Source of the DNA: a virus | Taxonomy: Duplodnaviria > Heunggongvirae > Uroviricota > Caudoviricetes | Reading direction: 5' to 3' (one strand) | Length of the DNA stretch: 64,000 bases | IMG/VR virus record: IMGVR_UViG_3300020577_013140 | Location: 84,381 to 148,380 of that record | In this document: one piece after another, positions 48,444 through 63,055 of the stretch | Layout: the number at the start of each line of letters is the position of its first letter | Numbering within the stretch: position 1 is the stretch's first letter | Notes under the pieces: model-generated | The model's input: the letters and a program-made list of their open reading frames with translations, nothing else | Databases searched by the model: none | What the model was told of the DNA's origin: nothing | Position numbers and translations under genes: made by a program

Positions 48444-50114
48444 CTATTCGCCGTCTGCTTCGTTGAGCGCCTGGAAATCCACCTGGGTGACCTCGTGAAC
48501 GAGGGCCGAAGGATTCTTACGGAGCTCAGTCAGCAGGGCGAATATCTTGTCTGAGAAACCAGACAGAACAGCCACGGAGTCTTCCGGGAACATCATCGTT
48601 TTAGACCCCGTGAGGTCAAACATGACGATGAAAGGAAGAACCTTGTGGCGCTGTTCATACTGGCGTCTTGCGGCAGTCGGCGCGCCGGCTTGCGAGTCCC
48701 AGCTGTCACCGAACTGCCAACCTTCACCGTCCGACAGGATGATGATGTTGTCGTATCCAGTGGTGGCAGCTTCGAATATGGAATGGAAGTTGGTGGAGCC
48801 TCCGTTCCAGTTCTGACGTATGTCATTCAACGTCGCGAACAGCGACATATTCGTGCGGATCGGCTTGTAGGTAGCTCGGTTCGCGAATGACATGAAGTGA
48901 GCACCGGGTTGGCTCTTGAGCACGATTGCCGCGAACAGCGACCCGATGTTTGCAGGAGAGCGGTCAGTCTCGACACCCCCCATTGATGCAGACTCATCCA
49001 GCGCAACCAGGGTACGCCCTGGGAGTTTCGGAATGTTTCGGCACGACAAGGCGACGGCTTCCTCAATTGCGTCAGCGACCACCCGCGAATGCACGAACCC
49101 AGAGGCAAGGACTTCCTTGTAGGCACGTACAAACTGGAATGGAAGGATCAACGAATTCTCCACCGCCTTGGGGTTGGTGATGAACTCACAGACCTGAGGG
49201 ATTACTTCAGGTGCCTGCTCCAGGATGTTCCGGAGGTTGCGCAGGGTGGCGAAGTAACCGAGTTTCCGCTCCGCCACCAGCTCACGCCAAACCTGGGCCT
49301 TCTTCGCCGGGTCGGAGCCTGCAGCCGAAAGGCGTGCTTCCCACGTGTCGACGTTCTTCAACTCGCCACGTACGAACTGTCGGAAAGCCTCAGCGTTCTC
49401 GGGCGTCGGCTTCGGGTGTACGAGGTTGAACACGTCAACCAAGGAAATCGCCTGACCGGTCTTCTGGTACTTGGCCAGCCGATAGCCATCGAGCTTGGAC
49501 AGCGCGGCGGCGATACCCTTCTTCAAGGGATATGGTAGCGTCACTGGGACCTTCTTGCCTCGCTTGCCTCCGGGCTTACGGATGGTCTTGCCTCCGCCGA
49601 AGAACGCGAAGTAGGCCGCCACAATTTCCAGGGCGTCATCCGGGCGGTAAATCACGGACTCGACAAACTGCTTGACCCAGGTCTCGCCCTTGCCCTTCGT
49701 GTAGTAGCAGACCAAGGCCGCCACAGCGTGGGAAATGGACCGAAGGCCGAGTACGCGGCGCGCCCACACAGCGGCCTGAGCAGCGAAGCGAGGGCTGTGC
49801 TTGACGAGGGTCTTCAACCGCTCAAGCGTCTGGGCTTCGCTCTCATAGAACTTCCCTTTAGGCTCATGCAGCAGGGTGGTGAAGATGAGCGACAACAGCT
49901 CGAAAGCTGGGCTCTTCCGGAAAGCCTTTCCACCCGCTGCGTTGACCGTGTCGGTCTGTGCGTGGTGATGAGGCATGACGGTGGTAGCGGCCGGTGGCGA
50001 TGGCGGGATCTGACCGACCAGCGAGGTCGCCGAACGCGACCGTGCTCGTTGCGACTGCGAAGAGAGCGCAGGCTGGGTTGGAGTTGTGTTGAGTGAGGAG
50101 CTGAACTTAGCCAT
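48444..50114 (-). CDS. rsr: Ro60/Rsr TROVE-domain RNA-binding protein with C-terminal vWA domain
   Basis: DTVNAAGGKAF N-terminal motif, TWEARLS, LGYFATLRNLRN, ILPFQFVRAY, VALDESASM, TNF..IF, IILSDGEGW. Confidence 0.92.
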   Translation of the reverse strand: MAKFSSSLNTTPTQPALSSQSQRARSRSATSLVGQIPPSPPAATTVMPHHHAQTDTVNAAGGKAFRKSPAFELLSLIFTTLLHEPKGKFYESEAQTLERLKTLVKHSPRFAAQAAVWARRVLGLRSISHAVAALVCYYTKGKGETWVKQFVESVIYRPDDALEIVAAYFAFFGGGKTIRKPGGKRGKKVPVTLPYPLKKGIAAALSKLDGYRLAKYQKTGQAISLVDVFNLVHPKPTPENAEAFRQFVRGELKNVDTWEARLSAAGSDPAKKAQVWRELVAERKLGYFATLRNLRNILEQAPEVIPQVCEFITNPKAVENSLILPFQFVRAYKEVLASGFVHSRVVADAIEEAVALSCRNIPKLPGRTLVALDESASMGGVETDRSPANIGSLFAAIVLKSQPGAHFMSFANRATYKPIRTNMSLFATLNDIRQNWNGGSTNFHSIFEAATTGYDNIIILSDGEGWQFGDSWDSQAGAPTAARRQYEQRHKVLPFIVMFDLTGSKTMMFPEDSVAVLSGFSDKIFALLTELRKNPSALVHEVTQVDFQALNEADGE

Positions 50115-50144: not shown

Positions 50145-50196
50145 AGGGTCGACGGGGTATTTCGTAGATAGAAGTATCCGTCAGTGTTACATCCCT
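50145..50196 (-). ncRNA. Y-RNA-like unit 1 (minimal)
   Basis: AGGG-AUGUAAC...GACGG/CCGUC...GACCCU; closest unit to the Ro60 start; lacks an exact GUUCAUC. Confidence 0.5.
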
Positions 50197-50366
50197 CTAA
50201 AAAAATGCATCGGGCACCGCCAACGCTCTAGGTCGTTGTCGTTAAACGCCGTTTCCACGGTGGCCAGTTCGAGGATCTTGAACGACTGCAGTAAGGTCCT
50301 CCGCGACCGATGCTCCTGCCTCAATGGGTCTCGAGAGCGAGACCCAGAGTTTGCAGGTAAATGAAA

Positions 50367-50442
50367 CCGGGCGAAAAATAGACTTGTGAATTTTTGTTTC
50401 AGCGATAATGCAGAAGATGAATCACAAACCGTTACGTCCCGG
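50367..50442 (-). ncRNA. Y-RNA-like unit 2 (short cargo)
   Basis: CCGGG-ACGUAAC-GGUUUGUGA-UUCAUC...UUCACAAGUC-UAUUUUUC-G-CCCGG. Confidence 0.7.
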
Positions 50443-50459
50443 AAAATGGAAAAGGGGAA

Positions 50460-50527
50460 TGCGGAGAAAAGGAGTACCAGCGGGGGTTATCGTGGAATGA
50501 TGAACCGCTGGAAAAGTTACTTCCGCA
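50460..50527 (-). ncRNA. Y-RNA-like unit 3 (short cargo)
   Basis: UGCGG-AAGUAAC...CCAGCGG-UUCAUC...CCGCUGG...UUUUC-U-CCGCA. Confidence 0.7.
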
Positions 50528-50535
50528 AAGTGATA

Positions 50536-50600
50536 GGGGAGAAATGATGTTTGTGGGTTTTTTCTTAAACGCAAGATGAACCACAGACTGTTACTTCCCC
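50536..50600 (-). ncRNA. Y-RNA-like unit 4 (short cargo)
   Basis: GGGG-AAGUAAC-AGUCUGUGG-UUCAUC...CCCACAAAC...UUUC-U-CCCC. Confidence 0.7.
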
Positions 50601-50610
50601 AAAAGGAAAA

Positions 50611-50742
50611 GAGAGTGAAAAATTACCAGGAAGTTGTTTTCTCTACCATTGAGCTACGGCGGCATTTGAGCCGCCGGTGGGAATCGAACCCACGACCTTG
50701 TATTTTGCGGTACATGATGAACTCCTGATGGTTACATCTCTC
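50611..50742 (-). ncRNA. YrlA-like Y RNA unit 5 with a circularly permuted tRNA domain
   Basis: scaffold plus T arm GUGGG-UUCGAUU-CCCAC, acceptor CGGCGGC/GCCGCCG capped by a 6-nt loop, then D arm UAGCUCAAUGGUAGAG. Confidence 0.85.
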
Positions 50743-50765
50743 AAAATCGAAAAGTGTCTGGTTAA

Positions 50766-50825
50766 GGGCAAACATGGAAAAAGGAGACTGCAACAATCGG
50801 CTGCCTGTCTATTACATGTTTGCCC
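50766..50825 (-). ncRNA. Y-RNA-like unit 6 (variant, long terminal stem)
   Basis: GGGCAAACAUG-UAAU-AGAC...GUCU-CCUUUUUC-CAUGUUUGCCC; lacks GUUCAUC. Confidence 0.55.
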
Positions 50826-50981
50826 ACCTCGTCAGTGGAACCAGCACCACTATGAACACCCCTCACAGATGTTTGTCCGGAAGGTTTGATAGCGACTAAA
50901 CCGGGGCGCATTGTATCGGAATCGCTGCCCGTTCGAGTATCCGGTCTGTAGCCGGCGCCGAAGCGCTACAAGTCGCTAAAT

Positions 50982-51058
50982 TGGTAGCGGGGGCTGGATT
51001 TGAACCAGCGACCTCTTGGTTATGAGCCAAGCGAGCTACCAGGCTGCTCCACCCCGCA
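50982..51058 (-). tRNA. tRNA-Met(CAU), initiator-like, CCA encoded
   Basis: UGCGGGGUGGAGCAGCCUGGUAGCUCG...CUCAUAA...GGUUCAAAUCC...ACCA; 1:72 mismatch and A11-U24 pair. Confidence 0.93.
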
Positions 51059-51166
51059 ATCGAAAGAATGTTCCCGGCCATGGCCGGGTGAGATGGAGTC
51101 CGGCCCCATCGACTGGATGTTTCACGCCCGTCGCCTCCGGTTAAAGAGGTATCCAGTCAAAAAGAA

Positions 51167-51305
51167 TCCAAGGCGAATAAATTGTACGAGCTACATTTTG
51201 AACAGCTGCTCTTCCACTGAGCTATAGATGCCAAAGACACCTAGGTGGATTCGAACCACCGACCAGCTGTGGGATTGATGGACGTCGTACGGTTACGTCC
51301 TTGGA
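51167..51305 (-). ncRNA. YrlA-like Y RNA unit 7 with a circularly permuted tRNA domain
   Basis: UCCAAGG-ACGUAAC...GUCCAUC; ACAGCU/AGCUGU stem at the anticodon-stem position, T arm GGUGG-UUCGAAU-CCACC, capped acceptor, D arm UAGCUCAGUGGAAGAGC. Confidence 0.85.
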
Positions 51306-51312
51306 AAGGGAA

Positions 51313-51446
51313 TGAGGAGAAAAAGCGAAAGACATTTGTTAGGTGCTCTAACCGCTGAGCTATCCTGGCGTCTAATGCCAGGAGTGGGATTCGAACCCAC
51401 GACCACCCGCTTTACATGCGATGAACGTCTTTCAATTACTTCCTCA
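51313..51446 (-). ncRNA. YrlA-like Y RNA unit 8 with a circularly permuted tRNA domain
   Basis: UGAGG-AAGUAAU...GUUCAUC; T arm GUGGG-UUCGAAU-CCCAC; UCCUGGC/GCCAGGA capped acceptor; D arm UAGCUCAGCGGUUAGAGC. Confidence 0.85.
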
Positions 51447-51454
51447 AAAGTGAA

Positions 51455-51586
51455 TGGAGAGAAAAAGTGAACCTCATTTTTTAGTGTGCTATCCGTTACA
51501 CCACCAGCCCGTCAAATGGGCCAGCCAGGAATTGAACCTGGACCACTCGTTCCATATACGATGAACGAGATTCTATTACTTCTCCA
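51455..51586 (-). ncRNA. YrlA-like Y RNA unit 9 with a circularly permuted tRNA domain
   Basis: UGGAG-AAGUAAU...GUUCAUC; T arm CCAGG-UUCAAUU-CCUGG; CUGGCCC/GGGCUGG capped acceptor; D arm UGGUGUAACGGAUAGCAC. Confidence 0.85.
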
Positions 51587-51605
51587 AAAGTCAAAGAGCT
51601 TGATT

Positions 51606-51750
51606 GCTCTCTTGGCATTCCAGGATGCGTTCGTTGTAGTGTTCAGCTCGTGTACTGGTAAAGGTCCTTTTTCTCGGAGCTTACCTGTCATTTGCAGAAC
51701 TCTTAGTCTGTAGAAACAGATGAACGACCTAAAAAGAATGCCAAGGGGGC
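51606..51750 (-). ncRNA. structured RNA related to the Y-RNA-like units (variant)
   Basis: ~15-bp terminal stem GCCCCCUUGGCAUUC/GAAUGCCAAGAGAGC and a GUUCAUC motif, but no GUAAY. Confidence 0.45.
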
Positions 51751-52130
51751 AATCAACGCCTCCTATTATGGAGGCTTGCTGAAAATTGTCAACCCCCTAT
51801 TTAAGGAGGCGATAGGAGTGTTGCCGGTTCCAAAGGCCACTATTCGTGACTCATCGAAACCGAGCAAAAAACGCCAAGCCAGTGAAGCAAGGCACGTCAT
51901 TTGTTCACCTCGCACTACCAAGGTGTTTTTGTCGACGCCAACAACACTCCATTTGGGGGGCGAGGTGTTAACCAGGCCGCCTGCCACCAGCTGTATTTGA
52001 CCGATGAGGTTAGGCATACAGCAGCCGACTGTCAGATGCACTGACAGATTGAGCACTTGCCCCTTAGTCCGCGGCGTACCGCAGGTCAGAGTTTCGCGAT
52101 CCTTATTTCATGATCAGGGTGCTCAAAAAT

Positions 52131-52281
52131 TGGTGTGCGAGGCGGGACTTGAACCCGCATAGCCCTCACGAACAGGTTGGTGCCTGCTTGAGTCGGTATG
52201 GGCATCCCCGGATACCACTCCGGAGCGTATCTCACCTACAATCCCTTTGGTTATTTGTTCCCTCGGGGTGACGGCTCGCAC
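52131..52281 (-). ncRNA. 151-nt tRNA-like RNA with canonical acceptor, T arm and CCA but an atypical enlarged core
   Basis: GUGCGAG/CUCGCAC-ACCA acceptor, GCGGG-UUCAAGU-CCCGC T arm and a long variable-arm-like hairpin; no recognisable D or anticodon arm. Confidence 0.5.
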
Positions 52282-52286
52282 AAAGT

Positions 52287-52552
52287 CCGTGGATGAAAAG
52301 ATGCAACGAGGTATTGGGTGTAATGACCGGACTCTCGCCCTGCCTCCCTCAACCTGCACTGTCGCAGCAGGTGTGCGGAGAACCTATGGTGGATTCTCAT
52401 TGCCGTACTTACAGAGAAGACAACCGAGGTTGCCTGTCCTGGACGCAATAGGTTAGTTTTGCGAACAGCCAAAGGAGCCTGCCCGTACCGTCCCGCCCCC
52501 TCTTTGTGGTATGCTTTTAATTAGATGAACTCGTTTGCGTTACGTTCCACGG
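52287..52552 (-). ncRNA. long Y-RNA-like unit 10 (266 nt) with a ~210-nt inserted domain
   Basis: CCGUGGA/UCCACGG terminal stem, ACGUAAC, GCAAACGAG/CUCGUUGC second stem, GUUCAUC and CUUUUC-A motifs. Confidence 0.7.
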
Positions 52553-52671: not shown

Positions 52672-53190
52672 TTAATCCCCAGATACAGAAACCCCCAGGA
52701 TCTCCACCATGAAGTTCCTTACCGGCTGGCTAAGGAATGTACCACCCATAACCGGATCCCGTACTATCACTCCTCCAGTCGCCTGCTCCCCCCTTGGAGG
52801 GGCGTAACCGGACTGGTGATATGTGGTCACCCAGACCATGCCTACCAGATAGGTGGAGAGACAAAAGGCCGTCTTTAGATGCAAGTCAGTTATAAACCCC
52901 TCTCCCTGACAATAGGCCTCCCGTAGAGGACACTTCAACCATTTTGCTGGGTCCACCAAGGCAGCCAGGTTTAGGGTGCCTTTACCGCCCAACGATACAC
53001 AGTGGAAGTACGGTTCGGTGTAGCGCAAGCTCAGCCTTTCGGCCAGGATAGGATATCGAAATACCGGGAGTTCCTCCCTGGTATCCCGACTGAACAATGG
53101 CTCCTTCACGAACTCCGCTTTCGGTATTTTCGTGAAGGAGGCCAGCTTCTGCAGCAGGGCATGCTCGGCAGCTTTACCTTGAATAGTCAT
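52672..53190 (-). CDS. hypothetical protein
   Basis: 172-aa tiling ORF. Confidence 0.7.
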   Translation of the reverse strand: MTIQGKAAEHALLQKLASFTKIPKAEFVKEPLFSRDTREELPVFRYPILAERLSLRYTEPYFHCVSLGGKGTLNLAALVDPAKWLKCPLREAYCQGEGFITDLHLKTAFCLSTYLVGMVWVTTYHQSGYAPPRGEQATGGVIVRDPVMGGTFLSQPVRNFMVEILGVSVSGD

Positions 53191-53609
53191 AGGCTGATCC
53201 TCCTAGGGGCTTCATCGTAGAAGTCTACAGTGTTTGTTGGAGTACTGGGGCTCGTAGCTCGAGGTCGCGCCGCTCGAGGTCGCACAGCACGCCTTCGTAA
53301 AGGTGCAGGAGGCGTGTCATTGATAGCTTCACCATCTTCGTCAAGGTCAGGTGTGTATTGATTGCGTACAGGTATTTCAACGTACCCTTTTGACACCTTC
53401 TCGCGGCGCGTCTTTTCGTACTCAGCCAATGCACGCTGGTATGTAACACCATCACATTTGGTCACATCCGTCAGCGTGCTGCCGATGCGGCCGTATTGTC
53501 CTCTTACCCTGTACGTGCCGGTCAATTCATTGCTCTCAAGCTCAAGGAGATACTCTTTGCTGTGCCCCCGTGTGGTGCATTCCAACCGTGTACGTTGCAA
53601 TACTGGCAT
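53187..53609 (-). CDS. WGR-domain protein
   Basis: Y.LEL...YRVRGQYGRIG...A...YEK..REKVSKGY. Confidence 0.8.
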   Translation of the reverse strand: MPVLQRTRLECTTRGHSKEYLLELESNELTGTYRVRGQYGRIGSTLTDVTKCDGVTYQRALAEYEKTRREKVSKGYVEIPVRNQYTPDLDEDGEAINDTPPAPLRRRAVRPRAARPRATSPSTPTNTVDFYDEAPRRISL

Positions 53610-55990: not shown

Positions 55991-57076
55991 TTAGACTGGG
56001 CGACCAGCTTGCAGGAACTCACGTGCCTGGTCAAGCGTGAATGGAGGCGGGCCTCCAACTGGGGCGCTCATCGGGTTGCTGGCGCTAGCTGCCTGAACCT
56101 GCGGTAGCGGGCGATCGGCCTGCACTGGCGCCGTAGGCACCATGGCGCGAGGAATCGGGGCCGCCGTAGGCATCGGCATCGGCGCCGGCCCTGGCCGGCT
56201 TACTGGGATATTTCCATTTGCCGTAGGAATGCTGGCCGATGGAATACCTGAAGGAGCAGGAACCGGCAGAGTCGCACCTGAGACACTGGCTGCGCTGCCC
56301 CCAATGACTGTTCCGTTGGGCATCTGGTAACCCTGCATGCACCGGTTGAAGATCTCGGCAGGAACAAAGCTGTGGAGCTTCTCCACGAGATACTCGATTT
56401 CCGGGTAATGAACTACCTCGTCCAGGTTATAGAGGTAGTTTGCATCAGCCAACTCAGGAGGCAGCGGGTAGGTCCTGGAGGCCTCAGGTGTCACCACCCA
56501 AGGTTGTCCCACAGCGTCCTTCTTCAATTGAATGAACACCGGAATTGCGGCATTTGGGTCATTCAATAGTGGAGCTTCCGAACCGTCAGGCATACGGCGA
56601 CGGTGCCATGCCTCGATATGCTCACCACCACCAAACTGAGGCAGGGTGAGGACATGCGCACCAAGGCTGAGGTCACGCATGTAGGCCACATTAAACAGCA
56701 CCTTGTTGGCCGGACGACCAAATGGCGGGTAACGTTTCACCTGGCGGCCATTCTGACTGACTTGCTCAACGCGAGCGTAATCCGGGTAGAACTGCTTAAC
56801 CCGGCCGGCGAAATACGCCACGGGGCAATTGCGCGGGATTGAGAACGTCTCCTTCACATCGATACCGAAGTTGTCGCGAACGGCGAGAACCTTCCACGAC
56901 ACACCGCGCCCCATGGCGTCAGCCTTGTATGGAGGGAGGATGAAGAAGAAGTTGCCTTCCTTATTTCGGTCATCTCGAAAATTGATGACGCGGATGCCGT
57001 CTTTGAGGGTTCGCCCGAAGACGTTAGTACTGAGGTCGCTCCCATCAAAGGAACGAGAAGGTGTAATTACAGCCAT
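55991..57076 (-). CDS. probable single-stranded DNA-binding / recombination mediator protein (gp32-like)
   Basis: directly upstream of RecA; F.ILPP...CPV...VLFNV pattern with a Pro/Ala-rich tail. Confidence 0.5.
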   Translation of the reverse strand: MAVITPSRSFDGSDLSTNVFGRTLKDGIRVINFRDDRNKEGNFFFILPPYKADAMGRGVSWKVLAVRDNFGIDVKETFSIPRNCPVAYFAGRVKQFYPDYARVEQVSQNGRQVKRYPPFGRPANKVLFNVAYMRDLSLGAHVLTLPQFGGGEHIEAWHRRRMPDGSEAPLLNDPNAAIPVFIQLKKDAVGQPWVVTPEASRTYPLPPELADANYLYNLDEVVHYPEIEYLVEKLHSFVPAEIFNRCMQGYQMPNGTVIGGSAASVSGATLPVPAPSGIPSASIPTANGNIPVSRPGPAPMPMPTAAPIPRAMVPTAPVQADRPLPQVQAASASNPMSAPVGGPPPFTLDQAREFLQAGRPV

Positions 57077-57181: not shown

Positions 57182-57799
57182 TTACACGTACAACAGAATC
57201 TGGTCGGTCACGTCTTCCCCACGTAGGTGGTTGAGAAAACATTGAGCCATCATACTGGCCACGACCACCGGCGTAATGTGTGATACTTTCTTTGCCTTAT
57301 CGACAGCGAGCAAACAACCACGGCGCTCTTTCGAATCACTGAGGCTGGCTCGCAGGGACTTCTCCCCTACACGAGAGTTGAACAACCCGATATTCCGGCT
57401 GCTACAGCGGCCATCAATCCAATAGAGTGATGGGTTGTTGAAGCCATATTCGTAGAGGTCCTTACGGAATGTCATGCTGTCGACGCAGGAAAACACTACG
57501 TCGTAATTCTTGAAGTCGGCTGGAGTCATGAAACGTAACTCCGGGGTAATCACCCTTGCAGTACGTTCCGAGATAATCTCAGCCTTAGGACGACCGATGT
57601 CGTCCTCGGTAAAATTCTGGTGCAGCAAGTTTGTATGGTCGACGGTGTCATCATCGAACACAGTCCAACGCCAATCAGCGAATGGAAATTGTGCCCGGTT
57701 GACACCGAGGTCATATAGAAAACCTGCCAGATATCCACCGATGCCACCGGCACCGGCAATTGCTACGTTTCGGATGCGACTTGCGACTTGTTCAGACAT
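57182..57799 (-). CDS. ThiF/E1-like adenylating enzyme
   Basis: VAIAGAGGIGGYL, FDDDTVDHTNLLHQNF, IGRPKA, VFSCVDSMTFRK, WIDGR, candidate catalytic Cys in RRGCL; start trimmed to ATG at 57799. Confidence 0.9.
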   Translation of the reverse strand: MSEQVASRIRNVAIAGAGGIGGYLAGFLYDLGVNRAQFPFADWRWTVFDDDTVDHTNLLHQNFTEDDIGRPKAEIISERTARVITPELRFMTPADFKNYDVVFSCVDSMTFRKDLYEYGFNNPSLYWIDGRCSSRNIGLFNSRVGEKSLRASLSDSKERRGCLLAVDKAKKVSHITPVVVASMMAQCFLNHLRGEDVTDQILLYV

Positions 57800-57812
57800 A
57801 CACGATAGAGGA

Positions 57813-58298
57813 TTAAACTTGGAATGAAGTAGAAAAAGGAATAGATAGATTAGAAAGATCCACACTCTGAAAAAACCAGGAGGTTTCCGTGCCGTCGTTG
57901 CCGTCGAACGCAAACCAGTTTAGTTCTTTAAGCGAAGGGGACCATATGAAATTATTAGGCTGTCCATTGAACAGCCTCGTAAGGTCCGTACCACTCGGCA
58001 GCGCCCGGCATCCCGTAGGATGCGTATGGAAGCTGCCGAAGTTGATGAACCCGCGGGAGTAAGACCCGATGACTCTGTCACCATACTGCTGCTGATCGGG
58101 CTCGTAGAGGGCGACCCCAACAGGAGTACCCGTGTGCTGGTTTACGAGGTGGTGGAATTCATACTTCTCTCCATTTTGAACAATGAAGCCTCCTTCCTCC
58201 TCATTCTCACCAGGGCACTGAGCGATGGCTTGCTGGATGGCTTCACGCAATGACCCATCCAGCTGCACCACAGGCATTTTCAAAAGGCGATAACGCAT
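57813..58298 (-). CDS. JAB/MPN+ (JAMM) metalloprotease
   Basis: EEEGGFI plus GSFHTHPTGCRALPSGTD (E...HxH-x7-S-x2-D); start trimmed to ATG at 58298. Confidence 0.88.
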   Translation of the reverse strand: MRYRLLKMPVVQLDGSLREAIQQAIAQCPGENEEEGGFIVQNGEKYEFHHLVNQHTGTPVGVALYEPDQQQYGDRVIGSYSRGFINFGSFHTHPTGCRALPSGTDLTRLFNGQPNNFIWSPSLKELNWFAFDGNDGTETSWFFQSVDLSNLSIPFSTSFQV

Positions 58299-58299
58299 A

Positions 58300-60291
58300 T
58301 CAAGCCTTGGCTGCTTTTGCGTCGCGGATGGGATCACGAAGCGTTGTGATCCGGTCGACCACCAGTGTGTCGTTCTTCAACGCCATCAGCCGGGTGACCA
58401 AGGCGTCGTAACCGACACCCATTTCAGCCCGGCCATCAACGATGCAAACGTATTGGCTGGTGCCCGTCTTCCACACCTTGAAGGACTCCTTCTCAACCGT
58501 GTAGGAAGCACCACTTGCCCCAACGACCTCATAAGCGTCCAAACCTTGATGCTTGGTCTCTTTCGCTCCGACTTCCTTGACAACCGTAGCAAGCAACTGT
58601 GCAGACTTCTTCTCGGCCTCAGAGCGTGCCTCCAACAGCCAGTCCACCAACGGGGCCAACTCTTCCAAGGTCACAAGCGGCACATCCTTGTCATCCACGG
58701 CGTGCAGTCGAATAATCCGCTTGAGGTGGTACTTGCACCATTCCGTATTCCGACGTTGAAGTCCGGACTCGTCATTTACCCAGGAGTTGTTTGTCTTCCC
58801 GTTGAGCTTTGCCAACTCATCGAGGAACCCGACGAAACGGCGCAACGGAACCTTGGTCGTCTTTTCCTTGTTGAGCCACAGGTAGTAATGCCCCTTTTCG
58901 CAAATGAAGAAGATCTTGGGGTGCTTGGCTGTGACCGGGCGGTTATAGTCCGCGTAGCGGTCAAACGTAAAGATCTTCAGCGGAACGCCGTTTGACAGGG
59001 CGTCGTGTACACGCAGCGAGGCCTTCTCGATTTGACGGACAAATCGATTGTAGTCCTCGGCATTAGTGAAGCAGGTGGCCCGGCGAAGAACGCGATGCAG
59101 CTCATCGTTATTGATGTAATGCCCGTTTACTTTTCGCCGAGTGTTCGTCGTGCTCAGTGACAGGACAATGGGAATATCGTTGATACGGAAAGCCCATTGC
59201 TTGGCTTCATTAAATCCTTTGGAAGTCGCAGACAGCGGAACTTGACTTGACTCATGGACGATGGAAGCGATAAAGGCATCCGCCAGCTGGTAGATGTCGA
59301 ACACTCCATTAGGATCCAGTTTCGTCATGATGACGTCCGTCAGCCCCTCAGCCTCGATGCTGATGGTCTCGTAAGTCGCCCGGTTGGCGCTCAGTTTGAT
59401 GTTGTTAAGGACGATCTCCTTAATCTCACCTCGCTGGAACTTGGTGACGATGACGTTTTGTGCGTTCGTCTCAAAGTCTGCGCGGATGGCAGCCTTCAAC
59501 TTGGCATATCGCTGTGCGTGGGCCTCCGGAAGTGCACGTTCAGCCAGCATGAGAATCCTCTGTAGCTCGCCGGAATTTGCAGCATTCAGAAATACTCCGT
59601 CACGCAGCAACAGCTTGACTTGCTCCGGAATCACCGCGAACAACGCTGCCAACGAATACACGTTAAGGCTAAGCTGGTTCGAGATAAAGATGGCGGGAAC
59701 TTCACCCGTCTTGGAGCAAAAGAACACGACGTGTCCTTTATCCATGTAGTTGTAGAGTGGACTGTCTGTGCTCACAGCGAAATACGAGGGGCTGGTATGC
59801 CCAGCATCACGGACAAAGCCGTCACCTGTCGTCGTCAGTGCATCGCCACTCAATGTACGATATGACTTCCCTTGACCCTGGGATTCAACAGGCGTACCCG
59901 TAATAAACATCGGTACAACTACCCCAAACCCGTGACTCGAGAACCCACGAACGGTCTCGAAGAAATACTTAACCGGGCTTTGAAGGAGAGAGCTGTGACC
60001 GCGTGTAACTTGAGCAAAAGTCTTCTGCTTTTCAAGCGTCGTGAAAAATGATGAGTTCTGCCCAGCCGGTGTGAGTGTTCGATCCGACACATACCACTGG
60101 CTAGTTTCGCAAATCATTGCGAGTGCCGGAACGTTGTCCACGTTGCTAAACTTAGGGAGAAAATGCCACTCATTGGAGGCACCAACCCAGAAGCTTTCAG
60201 GTTCAATCGCCACCGTGATACCGGGGAGCTGTCGTTGGATTTCAGCGAATTGGCGAACTGCGTGCGAAATTGTCTTTAGAGGAATAGCCAT
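58300..60291 (-). CDS. 663-aa protein of unknown function inside the Ubl operon
   Basis: long ORF tightly coupled to the JAB gene (TGATATG); no family recognised. Confidence 0.85.
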   Translation of the reverse strand: MAIPLKTISHAVRQFAEIQRQLPGITVAIEPESFWVGASNEWHFLPKFSNVDNVPALAMICETSQWYVSDRTLTPAGQNSSFFTTLEKQKTFAQVTRGHSSLLQSPVKYFFETVRGFSSHGFGVVVPMFITGTPVESQGQGKSYRTLSGDALTTTGDGFVRDAGHTSPSYFAVSTDSPLYNYMDKGHVVFFCSKTGEVPAIFISNQLSLNVYSLAALFAVIPEQVKLLLRDGVFLNAANSGELQRILMLAERALPEAHAQRYAKLKAAIRADFETNAQNVIVTKFQRGEIKEIVLNNIKLSANRATYETISIEAEGLTDVIMTKLDPNGVFDIYQLADAFIASIVHESSQVPLSATSKGFNEAKQWAFRINDIPIVLSLSTTNTRRKVNGHYINNDELHRVLRRATCFTNAEDYNRFVRQIEKASLRVHDALSNGVPLKIFTFDRYADYNRPVTAKHPKIFFICEKGHYYLWLNKEKTTKVPLRRFVGFLDELAKLNGKTNNSWVNDESGLQRRNTEWCKYHLKRIIRLHAVDDKDVPLVTLEELAPLVDWLLEARSEAEKKSAQLLATVVKEVGAKETKHQGLDAYEVVGASGASYTVEKESFKVWKTGTSQYVCIVDGRAEMGVGYDALVTRLMALKNDTLVVDRITTLRDPIRDAKAAKA

Positions 60292-60368
60292 AGATGAAGT
60301 GAAGACACAATAGGGTTCGAAGGGAGGAGATGTTACTCTCCTCCCTCGTTAATACGAAACAGGAACAA

Positions 60369-60917
60369 TTAGCGCGCGGACCCACCGGCGAGATCGCCAG
60401 TCAAGGTGACCGTCACAGAACCGTTTTCACCAGCTGCCTCGACGACACGGAAAAGACGTTGAGTCTCGGCCAAGACGCCGGCAGGAGTGGACAGAGCGTC
60501 CTCATCGAAGGTGAAGACGTTGGAGTTGACATAAGCCCAGCGCTTATTCTCAACGTGAGCAGCAATAACCTTGCTGACAGCGGTGGCCAGGTCCTCGACG
60601 GTCTCGGTATGGCCGGTGGCATCGGTGACTCGGAGTGTAACCTGTTGACCGGCACCGCCGACGAGATCACCGGTGATGGTTACCGTGACACCGTCAGGGG
60701 AAGAAAGAAGCAGCTCGCGAAGACGAGCAGCGTCCTGCAAGAGAGCAGGGTCATCGACCGAAGTGGCCGTGAACTGAAAGACATTCGAACCGACATATGC
60801 CCAGCGCTTGTTCTCGATGTGGGCGGTGATAACCGTGTTGATGGCATCGGCCAGATCCTGAGTGAGGTTAGTGTGGCCAGAAGCGTCGGTGATGCGGATG
60901 TTGATGGTCTTGGTCAT
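60369..60917 (-). CDS. tandem di-ubiquitin-like (beta-grasp) precursor with two di-glycine motifs
   Basis: two ~88-91-aa repeats ending TGDLVGG and TGDLAGG(SAR); start trimmed to ATG at 60917. Confidence 0.75.
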   Translation of the reverse strand: MTKTINIRITDASGHTNLTQDLADAINTVITAHIENKRWAYVGSNVFQFTATSVDDPALLQDAARLRELLLSSPDGVTVTITGDLVGGAGQQVTLRVTDATGHTETVEDLATAVSKVIAAHVENKRWAYVNSNVFTFDEDALSTPAGVLAETQRLFRVVEAAGENGSVTVTLTGDLAGGSAR

Positions 60918-61020: not shown

Positions 61021-61773
61021 TCAATGAACTGGAAATTGTATTTTTCTCAACGCAATTTCACCGTTGTAAGTCATACATAGCCTGCACTTTGCACAAGCTC
61101 CAGCAGAACGCTCGTTCTTGAGCTTGCCAGATACTTCAGGGCAAACGACCCATTTTGTATCTGACGGCTGTGTACCAATATTTCCCATGTAACAAATTCC
61201 AACGTTATGATGCCCTGGACTACAAATATCGAACACCAATCGTGCTTCCGCATAATTGGCGTTGTCCGACGAAATGTAGAGCGCAAGGTTCTGACAATCC
61301 ATGAGCAGAGGCACGGCCCATAGACTTCGAGTGTACGTCCAGAATTGTACTTGCGGGAATTTCTTGATCGTCGCAGCCCACGCTCTGGCGTAATCTTCCG
61401 AGAAGAAATCGCCAGAAGTATGTAGCCGGAAATGCAAGAGCTTCCCGTTATTATGTTTGACAAACGCGGCAACAGAAGCAGTCAGGATCGCTTCCATCTC
61501 CTCCACGCTTTTTTCCTTCAACAAGGCAGTATTCCTTGCAAGGACCTTTCCAAAACTGGGGTAGGCCTTCACGAGTTTGTCAACGTAGCACGTAGCATTG
61601 ACTCCTCCTTCCCGCTTCAAGCTCAAACACCCACCAGGCCCTGTAGTGGACCCAGGGCACGTGCCGCCATTCTCTGGTCGGCCATGCATCAAACCAAAAG
61701 TGTTTAGATGATTAGATTTGAACTTAGTTTTGGAATTATCAGTGAATTTCAGTACATTGTCTGATTCAGTCAT
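61021..61773 (-). CDS. phage Gp88-like (radical-SAM-related) protein
   Basis: TCPG...C...CYV, FRLHTSGDFFSEDYARAW, FWTYTRS, CAKCRLC; start trimmed to ATG at 61773. Confidence 0.75.
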   Translation of the reverse strand: MTESDNVLKFTDNSKTKFKSNHLNTFGLMHGRPENGGTCPGSTTGPGGCLSLKREGGVNATCYVDKLVKAYPSFGKVLARNTALLKEKSVEEMEAILTASVAAFVKHNNGKLLHFRLHTSGDFFSEDYARAWAATIKKFPQVQFWTYTRSLWAVPLLMDCQNLALYISSDNANYAEARLVFDICSPGHHNVGICYMGNIGTQPSDTKWVVCPEVSGKLKNERSAGACAKCRLCMTYNGEIALRKIQFPVH

Positions 61774-61918
61774 GGTGTGGTTGCACGAGGTTCCTCTTTG
61801 CAAAGACACAACAAGATAGATCAAGACACGATAAGATACTGGCTAAACTACACTACGAAAAAGCAATACAAGATAAAAGGCACCCACCGCGTGGGTAGGT
61901 GCCTTGTGTGGTCCCAAC

Positions 61919-63055
61919 TTAGTCGAGCTGACTGGCGCCCGTCATACGACCTTCCGTCGGTGTAATCTCCGAGGTCACAACAGACGGATAGGTCGCCTGC
62001 ACCCGAGCAATCATACGAGCCAGGCAAAGGCGCACCTGCTGCTTGAACGCCTCACTAACCGTAAGTGATGCCAGCCAGTTCTGTACTGCAGGCTCGCTAG
62101 TGAGGCCGCGTACCAAAAGCGAAGTACTCAGGGCGTTGGCCGCCAGGCTGAGACGCTTTTTGACGCCATTCATCACTCGCTCGATCGAGGCTTCCGGAGC
62201 GAAGAGGCCATCAGCTTTTTTCAATCGACGCTCAGCCTCTCGAGCAAACACTGCAATATCAGAGGCGTTAGGGTTAAGCGTCGAGCTGATGCGCCCATCA
62301 TTGATGAGAATCGTAGAGGCTGGCGCCCAATCCAGCCCGTAGTTGGCAAACAGCTGCTGCACCTCGATGTAAGCGGCAGGCGTGGAAAAACGCACCGCAG
62401 CAAAATCGGCGCGGCTAAGTGCGCTTAATTGAGCTAGGGTGGTAACCCCGTAAGTCGCAAGGCTGTTCAACAGTACACGAGAAGTAAGCGCCGGAAACTC
62501 AGCCGATTGGAGGTCCTTCAGGAGGACAAGAGAAGCATCGCGTGCGCTAGGTGTTGGTGTAACCTTCTCGGTCGACTTTCCTCCATGCGAGTTTATTGCA
62601 GCGGCGAGAGATTGCAACCTTTCCGTCAACTTGGCCGCAGAGAGTTGCCCTTCGGTAAATTGAGTAAGAGCCGTATGCACATCTGCGGCAAAGGTGACAA
62701 AGGAAGGCGCAGTCGGCGATTCAGATGCCGGCTGCTTGTTACTCACTGGAGGGGCTGAGGCCTCCGGAGAGATATAGGGTCCGCTCGCCTGTGTGGCCTG
62801 CTGCTGCGCTTGTGTGGCCTGCTGCTGCGCTTGTGTGGCCTGCTGCTGCGCTTGTGTGGCCTGCTGCTGCGCTTGCTCTCCATTCCGACGAGCCTGCTCC
62901 GCCTTTAGCGCGGCGAGTACAGCCAGTGGAATAGGCGCACCGAGGGATTGATCACGCTCCAACTTGAGGATGGCGTTGTTAAGATGATGATTCTCCATTT
63001 GGTGAAGAGGAATTTCTTGCCCCTTGGAGACACTAAAGTAAGTGAAGTTCGACAT
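61919..63055 (-). CDS. protein with a Gln/Ala repeat and an RNA polymerase alpha-CTD-like HhH domain
   Basis: L.S.VLLNSL..YGVTTLAQLSALSRADF.AVRFSTPAAYIEVQQLF..YGL aligns by eye with the alpha-CTD pattern. Confidence 0.6.
   Translation of the reverse strand: MSNFTYFSVSKGQEIPLHQMENHHLNNAILKLERDQSLGAPIPLAVLAALKAEQARRNGEQAQQQATQAQQQATQAQQQATQAQQQATQASGPYISPEASAPPVSNKQPASESPTAPSFVTFAADVHTALTQFTEGQLSAAKLTERLQSLAAAINSHGGKSTEKVTPTPSARDASLVLLKDLQSAEFPALTSRVLLNSLATYGVTTLAQLSALSRADFAAVRFSTPAAYIEVQQLFANYGLDWAPASTILINDGRISSTLNPNASDIAVFAREAERRLKKADGLFAPEASIERVMNGVKKRLSLAANALSTSLLVRGLTSEPAVQNWLASLTVSEAFKQQVRLCLARMIARVQATYPSVVTSEITPTEGRMTGASQLD
62790..62873. repeat. four perfect 21-bp tandem repeats (TGTGTGGCCTGCTGCTGCGCT) encoding AQQQATQ
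   Basis: directly visible; in frame within 61919..63055. Confidence 0.95.

Follow-up and report, generated by a model that had tools for sequence, protein, structure and literature searches.

We analysed a window of 64,000 nucleotides (positions 84381-148380) from a 182,660-bp IMG/VR virus record with an estimated completeness of 83%, and concentrate here on a cassette of four genes at 57182-60917 of the window that encodes a tandem ubiquitin-like (Ubl) protein, a 663-amino acid (aa) protein, a JAB peptidase and an E1-like enzyme. The DNA comes from an uncultured giant phage of freshwater or wastewater with a genome of ca. 220 kb; its near relatives are contigs of 211-226 kb, part of them binned in bacterial metagenome-assembled genomes (MAGs), and nine metagenome studies, of rivers, freshwater, wastewater and activated sludge, contain near-identical DNA. 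The four genes are co-oriented and tightly packed on the minus strand, in the order di-Ubl precursor (60369-60917; 182 aa), 663-aa protein (58300-60291), JAB/JAMM metallopeptidase (57813-58298; 161 aa) and E1-like/ThiF enzyme (57182-57799; 205 aa). The di-Ubl gene starts with MTKT at 60917, which is the start backed by its homologues. At the next junctions, the JAB ATG at 58298 lies 1 nt past the TGA of the 663-aa gene, and the E1 ATG at 57799 lies 13 nt past the JAB stop; from the sequence, the JAB gene appears to be translationally coupled to the 663-aa gene, and a listed GTG start for JAB at 58337 is without support among homologues. The original prediction for this DNA had singled out these four co-oriented, closely spaced genes, an observation that we confirm and that is far past chance, because the gene order repeats in 14 related loci.

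Within the Ubl protein, both halves end in LTGDLxGG and match each other at 48% identity (BLASTP E=6e-29). Domain 1 (60654-60917, minus strand; residues 1-88) finishes in TGDLVGG, with the Gly87-Gly88 codons at 60654-60659, and domain 2 (60369-60653, minus strand, SAR tail and stop codon included; residues 89-179) in TGDLAGG, with Gly178-Gly179 at 60381-60386 and the three-residue tail SAR thereafter, just as had been described. AlphaFold2, with a 26-row alignment, modelled two copies of the order strand-strand-helix-strand-strand-helix-strand with disordered GG ends (mean pLDDT 78). In Foldseek comparisons with the PDB the best Ubl matches of this model were all tandem Ubls, namely ISG15 (E=1.3e-4, probability 0.99), FAT10, linear di-ubiquitin and the OASL di-Ubl, and the VIA matches include SUMO, ubiquitin and a chain of a bacterial E1-E2-Ubl complex. 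Each half is thus predicted to adopt a beta-grasp fold, and the structure-prediction check that had been proposed is passed on this predicted model, with each repeat matching ISG15, di-ubiquitin and FAT10. Pfam searches with the Ubl protein matched no Ubl family and gave no ThiS match at E<=0.1. A 25.5-bit partial match to FhaA_N (PF12401) covers 46 residues, of which no stretch passes alone; we regard it as a local resemblance and discarded membership of that family.

The Gly-Gly ends are strongly conserved. G87 and G88 are invariant in 26 sequences, all 26 aligned Ubls carry LTGxLxGG, and the terminal GG is kept in all of them except for one degenerate second domain. What follows the glycines is variable: the linker past the internal GG measures from 1 to 17 residues across the 26 sequences, and the tail after the terminal GG 0-5 residues in di-Ubl homologues and 2-9 in single-Ubl relatives. 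A conserved LTGxLxGG followed by mostly short and variable tails is the signature of a modifier needing trimming. The degenerate case comes from a 225,782-bp relative, whose Ubl (P0040) keeps an intact domain 1 next to a domain 2 without GH motif, KxW motif or terminal GG, a natural 'one live, one dead' tandem.

The suggestion that the protein is a polyubiquitin-like precursor gains support from these alignments, since conservation is equally strong at the internal and the terminal GG, and domain 1 alone has kept its GG in one relative. We favour this reading, with two modifiers released, over an ISG15-like unit that stays uncut, because an internal GG so constrained makes sense only if cleavage exposes it; Gly87-Gly88 is where the JAB is predicted to cut and the E1 to activate the modifier. 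Polyubiquitin is built alike, with a Gly-Gly at the end of every repeat and additional residues capping the final repeat. The first domain of ISG15 and of FAT10 lacks a GG end. ISG15, FAT10 and di-ubiquitin are the best structural matches and share the head-to-tail beta-grasp arrangement, at ca. 8-14% identity in the Foldseek alignments and with no sequence-search match, but, unlike these eukaryotic tandem Ubls, the cassette repeats resemble MoaD/ThiS-like proteins in having an additional helix that separates strands 4 and 5. The tandem arrangement is not general. All members of the close clade (663-aa protein 52-74% identical) have a double Ubl of 180-218 aa, and those of a second clade (663-aa protein 27-30% identical, contigs of up to 190 kb) have a single one of 87-156 aa. 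Phage lineages that are more distant again encode the Ubl after the large gene, as a protein of 70-91 aa with GG, GGSL or GGVR at its end. The tandem Ubl is a local, clade-specific duplication and not a defining trait of the system, and the original prediction has to be revised on this point.

The JAB protein carries the JAMM motif as EEEGG at residues 33-37, H91-x-H93, S102 and D105. This catalytic set (E33-35, H91, H93, S102, D105) is kept in 12 homologues, and the earlier description of a complete JAMM protease, with E...HxH...S..D intact, therefore stands. The spacer from HxH to S has 8 residues in the clade of the window and 7 in other JABs. Against Pfam Prok-JAB the window protein scores E=1.7e-4 and 21.8 bits, under the 25-bit cut-off; the JABs of distant sister cassettes match the archaeal desampylase (E=4e-17) and CBASS Cap3, which are Ubl isopeptidases, all under the family cut-offs.

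The E1-like enzyme consists of a single ThiF domain (Pfam ThiF, E=1e-16, 61 bits, over the 28-bit cut-off) and shows GAGGIGG at 16-22, DDDTVD at 49, NLLHQNF at 57, K72, CVDS at 105 and Cys162 within RRGC, with no CxxC pairs in its sequence. Its nearest named NCBIfam families include ThiF and MoeB, with E=4e-4 for the UbaA model, and its profile matches NEDD8 E1 and ThiF in the PDB. Members of the family have ca. 198-207 aa and share 68 invariant columns, Cys162 among them. The nucleotide-binding and Mg/ATP motifs are intact and likewise invariant; the cysteine, without exception in 11 sequences, is also retained, as SGSCQR, in distant lineages that are ca. 30% identical. These readings agree with the predicted ThiF/E1 enzyme with an intact nucleotide-binding motif and a candidate catalytic cysteine but without CxxC. 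By-eye alignment to the motif order of ThiF/MoeB would place Cys162 in the crossover loop, between the strand with the Mg-binding Asp and the helix that follows the loop. The genome record holds no other ThiF gene. The top NCBIfam match of the window E1, and of the E1s of distant cassettes, is PRTRC_ThiF (1.9e-12, 47 bits versus a cut-off of 145 bits for the window), from a system of plasmids and integrative and conjugative elements; membership of PRTRC was rejected, as the ThiF model alone matched, under its cut-off, no model for PRTRC proteins A-F matches the other three proteins, and no ParB homologue was noted beside the cassette.

The 663-aa protein gave no match in Pfam, PHROGs, NCBIfam or PADLOC. 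Its AlphaFold2 model (pLDDT 85, pTM 0.54) contains several domains. A profile search of 1.84 billion representatives retrieved at least 578 clusters at 50% identity with E<=1e-3, and 444 clusters at 1e-10; in most of the distant members it is the last ca. 115 residues that are shared, and the C-terminal ca. 120 residues are the best-conserved part of the protein. Across 65 sequences that are 16-24% identical, D184, G591, Y597, C616, A637, D641 and T650 are invariant, and N389, R392, N394, C407 and H429, among others, are nearly so. Cys616 (codon at 58444-58446) belongs to a C-terminal domain encoded at 58303-58674 of the minus strand (residues ca. 540-663). The second conserved cysteine, Cys407 (codon at 59071-59073, minus strand), is invariant in 31 sequences and present in at least 90% of the 65 diverse ones, and lies in a middle domain that also holds N389, N394 and H429. 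No PP-loop, ThiG, MoaE or CysM-type domain was detected in the 663-aa protein with Pfam and NCBIfam.

A survey of gene neighbourhoods, which had been suggested as a check, revealed a constant four-way association. The 14 related loci, from two giant-phage clades, share the order GP88-family gene, Ubl, large protein, JAB, E1, a gene for a 340-370-aa protein and RecA, with one extra gene between GP88 and Ubl in the more distant clade. We also checked six contigs from distant lineages; the sixth stops 100 nt past the 663-like gene and is uninformative, and in the five informative ones the large protein, a small GG protein, Prok-JAB and ThiF are all together. The other neighbours of the cassette differ in these lineages and none is shared, which identifies the four genes as the unit. 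Likewise, because it lies beside the GG protein, JAB and ThiF in five out of five informative distant contigs, the 663-aa protein is an integral fourth component, and the hallmark one, of the cassette.

Outside these contigs the cassette is rarely seen. Comparisons of the region, the 663-aa protein and the E1 with INPHARED phages by blastn and tblastn gave no match, leaving no cultivated relative at hand. Among 185,579 species genomes, which were scanned with two short patterns of the close family that distant prophage copies could escape, the close family appears on three MAG-binned contigs only; of these, two have phage size (211-226 kb), one is a fragment of 5.5 kb, and none is a visibly chromosomal copy.

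As to a carrier for the modifier between E1 and target, no match to UQ_con or Prok-E2_B was found in the genome record (83% complete), as would be expected from the earlier statement that no obvious E2 lies nearby. The statement is nevertheless too strong, since the 663-aa protein constantly accompanies the system and its C-terminal domain, with an invariant cysteine, may serve. The AlphaFold2 model of this domain runs through a long helix, four strands, a loop with Cys616 and helices, which is the order of the ubiquitin-conjugating (UBC) fold. About ten of the 50 best VIA rows are UBC, ubiquitin E2 variant (UEV) or RWD folds, all of them at residues ca. 557-663; they include the FANCL ELF domain, the Tsg101 and Vps23 UEVs, VPS37A, BubB (9eav chain D, residues 241-360, numbered according to PMC11601596), the Cap2 E2 domain, E2S, Ubc9 and UBE2F. 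These structural matches to E2/UEV folds are weak. The profile of the domain retrieved nothing under E=0.49 among PDB sequences, and a feature search of the ESM-Atlas with residues 540-663 returned no usable match. A complex prediction with two copies of E1, Ubl domain 2 and residues 535-663 of the 663-aa protein scored 0.00, which is evidence neither way. On the modelled fold, we consider the C-terminal domain a candidate E2-like acceptor, which it may be.

At the sequence level, the relative of this domain is DUF7737. A 72-sequence alignment of the domain, compared by hhalign with six Bacteroidota DUF7737 domains, aligned residues ca. 560-650 with DUF7737 (PF24879) over 87 columns (probability 94.3%, E=1.1e-7), and both share the motifs QY(L/V)CIV and LL(A/K)(D/N)D. 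Direct Pfam matches to DUF7737 occur in several family members, with a best score of 19 bits versus a cut-off of 27, and none occurs in the window protein. Rows of AFDB and the ESM-Atlas also name DUF4132/DUF7737 proteins, and a DUF4132+DUF7737 cluster ranks first by shape in the ESM-Atlas, with a TM of 0.24. As judged from these alignments, the C-terminal domain is homologous to DUF7737 at the superfamily level but is not a member by Pfam threshold. Bacterial DUF7737 proteins carry DUF4132 or DUF5724 upstream, which is not detectably shared by the phage protein; indeed, when the full-length 663-aa family was compared with DUF4132 proteins by hhalign, the likeness was confined to the DUF7737 part. 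In two of the six bacterial DUF7737 proteins the position of Cys616 is occupied by Ser. Swaps of this kind are known between thioester and oxyester E2s (PMC11601596), and by analogy the Cys/Ser alternation at this position could be what is expected of a nucleophile and would parallel the serine E2s of Bub.

The genomic context of the bacterial proteins offers a few further observations. At one of the six Bacteroidota loci (L033:2470-5771), the DUF4132-DUF7737 gene overlaps a canonical ThiF gene (Pfam, 218 bits) by 4 nt; this may be fortuitous, or a bacterial counterpart of the pairing seen in phages. At four others (L032, L034, L035 and L036) an open reading frame of 130-144 aa without Pfam match lies directly upstream of the DUF4132-DUF7737 gene, and in L037 one of 137 aa lies directly downstream.

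Taking the cassette as a whole, we lean, with somewhat better than even confidence, towards a phage-run, Bil-like pathway of Ubl activation and transfer that is built of much-diverged parts. From the genes, their motifs and predicted folds, their conservation and their constant association, we infer cleavage, thioesters, an E2-like role for the 663-aa protein, an acceptor and a biological purpose as follows. The 182-aa Ubl protein would be made as a precursor and the JAMM peptidase would cut past each Gly-Gly, yielding one or two modifiers of ca. 88 residues with a free C-terminal glycine. The 205-aa E1, probably as a homodimer, would adenylate this glycine and then form a thioester on the putative crossover-loop Cys162, from where the Ubl would move to the 663-aa protein, onto Cys616 of its C-terminal domain. 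Acceptor choice may fall to the large N-terminal part of this protein, which would then combine E2 and E3 in one chain. A lysine in a protein of the phage or its host would finally receive the Ubl, and the JAB could also undo the mark. As the cassette is always found among early or replication genes, it most likely serves host take-over or counter-defence at an early stage of infection.

The closest known counterparts of such a pathway are bacterial. Bil operons (BilABCD, types I and II) have the order bilA-D, their Ubl may have two beta-grasp domains, and they have no separate E3, the E2 being proposed to pick the target directly (PMC11601596). The cassette resembles them in its order Ubl, transfer protein, JAB, E1, and likewise has no separate E3. 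However, the Bil E1 has the architecture IAD-AAD-CYS and that of the cassette is a single 205-aa adenylation domain, the place of the E2 is held by the 663-aa protein with its DUF7737-like domain, and the cassette lies in a phage early/replication block whereas Bil lies in bacterial defence islands. The Bub systems (6E/DUF6527, types I and II) use Ubls of 1-3 beta-grasp domains, with a precursor cut by JAB past a conserved Gly (PMC11601596). Here the likeness is a minimal E1 of the homodimer type directly after JAB, and the Cys/Ser alternation of the DUF7737 relatives recalls the Bub serine E2. Unlike in Bub, with its JAB-E1 or E2-E1 fusions, JAB and E1 are separate genes in the cassette; the cassette keeps Cys in both the E1 and the 663-aa protein whereas Bub uses Tyr/Ser oxyesters; and the DUF6527 protease that is part of Bub was not found in the phage genome record. 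The SAMP/UbaA/HvJAMM1 systems of archaea and TtuB/TtuC of Thermus have in common with the cassette a small, GG-ended beta-grasp modifier, a MoeB/ThiF-type E1 and a JAMM isopeptidase, but no large protein constantly accompanies them, and Zn-binding CxxC pairs are present in their E1, which is also longer.

Several results weigh against a Bil-like transfer pathway. The E1 is far smaller than the Bil E1s and lacks the C-terminal region of MoeB/ThiF that helps to hold the Ubl, and PADLOC matched no Bil/ISG15-like model, giving only weak matches of the Rossmann part of the E1 to CBASS E1-E2 models and, separately, a weak generic JAB match. No Pfam E2 family matches the 663-aa family, and hhalign comparison with four Cap2-type E2 domains, a weak test with four templates only, gave a probability of 0.6% and therefore no sequence link to Prok-E2_B. 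Foldseek searches of the PDB and AFDB Swiss-Prot with the whole 663-aa model retrieved only noise (Mediator, RNase R). DUF7737, the real relative of the C-terminal domain, is without assigned function, and among six bacterial DUF4132-DUF7737 genes a ThiF gene is adjacent in one and a JAB gene in none. Finally, JAB, a tailed Ubl and an E1 also occur together in the sulfur-carrier pathways CysO/Mec and QbsE/QbsD (PMC1779556 and general knowledge). The original interpretation as a whole is partly supported: its anatomy and proposed fold hold, and its remarks on the E2 and on the tandem Ubl need revision.

Three other explanations have to be weighed against it. The Ubl could work without any E2, as in the SAMP/UbaA/HvJAMM1 or TtuB/TtuC systems, with the E1 alone transferring the modifier and the 663-aa protein acting as a dedicated substrate, scaffold or regulator whose cysteines serve another purpose. 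The minimal, homodimeric ThiF/MoeB/UbaA type of the E1 would fit, as would the JABs of the sister cassettes, which are closest to desampylase, and the lack of a sequence-level E2 signal in the genome record, in Pfam comparisons of the 663-aa family and in the hhalign test with Cap2-type domains; besides, constant co-occurrence of the large protein suits a dedicated target as well as an enzyme. We nevertheless consider this unlikely: the NCBIfam UbaA model scores only E=4e-4, and the most conserved residues of the 663-aa protein are polar and cluster around the two cysteines (D184; N389/N394/C407/H429; Y597/C616/D629/N640/D641), a pattern typical of catalytic sites and not of a passive target. 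Somewhat less probable still is sulfur-carrier or other acyl-adenylate chemistry, in which the Ubl would be thiocarboxylated, or its adenylate otherwise used, and would pass sulfur, or itself, on to a small molecule or a nucleic-acid base, and the 663-aa protein would be an acceptor enzyme, for instance in tRNA or DNA modification. The CysO/Mec and QbsE/QbsD pathways are established examples of GG-ended carriers that are trimmed by a JAB and work with ThiF-type enzymes (PMC1779556). The two highly conserved cysteines of the 663-aa protein, the ThiF and MoeB families nearest to the E1, and the position of the cassette among DNA-metabolism genes and adjoining a Cys-rich GP88-family gene all suit such chemistry. 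Nonetheless, the genome record (83% complete) has no match to rhodanese, cysteine desulfurase not having been searched for; the Ubl has no ThiS/MoaD Pfam match and no synthase domain was found among the cassette proteins with Pfam and NCBIfam; and the structural neighbours of the Ubl are protein modifiers, though fold alone cannot discriminate. We also know of no precedent for a tandem sulfur carrier with two processed GG ends, which counts against this chemistry.

The least probable of the three is that the cassette is a mobile, accessory defence or anti-defence island that is in the phage by chance, either directed in a Bil-like manner against competing phages or acting as a decoy that jams the Bil/CBASS Ubl defences of the host. 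Bacterial Ubl/E1/E2/JAB operons are indeed anti-phage systems (PMC11601596), and the E1 is weakly similar to the CBASS E1-E2 models of PADLOC. On the other hand, the position of the cassette between GP88 and RecA is constant across two clades whose 663-aa proteins are 27-30% identical, and the cassette components diverge in step with RecA and E1, as an inherited core module would and a swapped island would not. The scan of species genomes, with its two short close-family patterns, likewise gave just the three MAG-binned contigs, none visibly chromosomal. We retain the phage-run transfer pathway as the explanation that we prefer.

Other features accompany the cassette. The 77-nt spacer between the Ubl and 663-aa genes contains a GC-rich hairpin (60319-60347, minus strand; RNAfold -21.3 kcal/mol) without a T-run after it, which may be an attenuator or a transcript-stability element. 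A promoter and terminator scan found nothing over the shuffled background. RNA-library contigs from one wastewater study span the full 10-kb stretch at >=99% identity and cross the Ubl/663 and 663/JAB junctions; DNA is possibly present in such libraries, so transcription is unproven by them.

Upstream, a Cys-rich gene of the GP88 family (61021-61824, minus strand; PF17338, E=2e-32) directly precedes the Ubl gene in the close clade; it is found within one gene of the Ubl in the distant clade and ca. 2 kb downstream of ThiF in an unrelated lineage, and from this recurrence it is a possible functional neighbour of the cassette. Next to it, a gene at 61919-63055 (minus strand) encodes a 378-aa protein with five copies of a QQATQA repeat, with homologues in close relatives that are 31-41% identical. 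Also upstream of the cassette, two relatives (L002 and L004) and the P0019 contig encode a protein of ca. 920-950 aa in which a uracil-DNA-glycosylase-family domain is fused to a family A DNA polymerase, and one of these contigs has a DnaB-like gene with a homing-endonuclease/intein signature next to the polymerase.

Downstream, a 361-aa protein (55991-57076, minus strand), rich in Pro/Ala in its C-terminal half and matched by no family, is always encoded between E1 and RecA in both giant-phage clades; its gene is absent from the more distant cassettes, and the product could act in replication/recombination or be a candidate target. A stand-alone WGR-domain protein (53187-53609, minus strand; Pfam E=7e-7) is encoded ca. 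4 kb downstream of the cassette, in a syntenic position in the close relatives examined and in one more distant relative (36% identical). Lastly, a TROVE/Ro60-like gene (48444-50114, minus strand) and a non-coding RNA-like array (50145-52552) lie on the same strand ca. 7 kb downstream, and two close relatives have TROVE at a similar distance of 8-10 kb. An obligatory link of the cassette with Ro60/TROVE was ruled out, and the cassette is independent of Ro60, because TROVE is absent from three cassette-bearing genome records of the distant clade (86-97% complete).

Ubl-related genes have been noticed before in bacteria and viruses. Iyer et al. (2006; PMC1779556) described bacterial Ubl/E1/E2/JAB operons with 2-3 tandem Ubl domains and, for phages, only the Ubl-JAB pair of lambda/T1 tail assembly; Bil and Bub have been placed in bacterial defence (PMC11601596); and a preprint on Asgard viruses reports viral ThiF/E1-like genes and proposes that they hijack the host ubiquitin system. 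In the literature searched, neither this cassette of four phage genes nor the 663-aa family was found described, and no function was found for DUF7737. The 663-aa family, its constant place in the cassette, the link to DUF7737 and the clade-specific Ubl duplication are new here. They offer a large undescribed family, of at least 578 clusters, in which a conserved cysteine domain is tied to the uncharacterised bacterial DUF7737, a very small E1 of about 200 residues, and a compact system of four genes that is amenable to testing in E. coli. Besides, the tandem Ubl, specific to one clade and with both Gly-Gly ends intact, is a parallel in prokaryotic viruses to the polyubiquitin genes.

A broader proposal, which we put forward tentatively and at slightly less than even chances, is that several phage lineages, the giant ones here and smaller ones with contigs of 15-75 kb, run their own Ubl tagging as an inherited early-gene module, and that the transfer enzyme of ca. 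600-800 residues represents a new class, which would carry the Ubl on the invariant Cys of a DUF7737-type domain, possibly with relay to a second Cys/His site, and tag proteins of the host or the phage so that infection is steered or host defences are disarmed. If true, a Ubl-carrying transfer enzyme of the DUF7737 type would provide the first proposed biochemical role for the bacterial DUF4132/DUF7737 proteins. Bacterial Ubl conjugation has so far been described as a weapon of the host against phages (CBASS Cap2/Cap3, Bil and probably Bub); a conserved version owned by the phage reverses this picture, and suggests that bacterial viruses, like eukaryotic ones, use protein tagging for their own ends.

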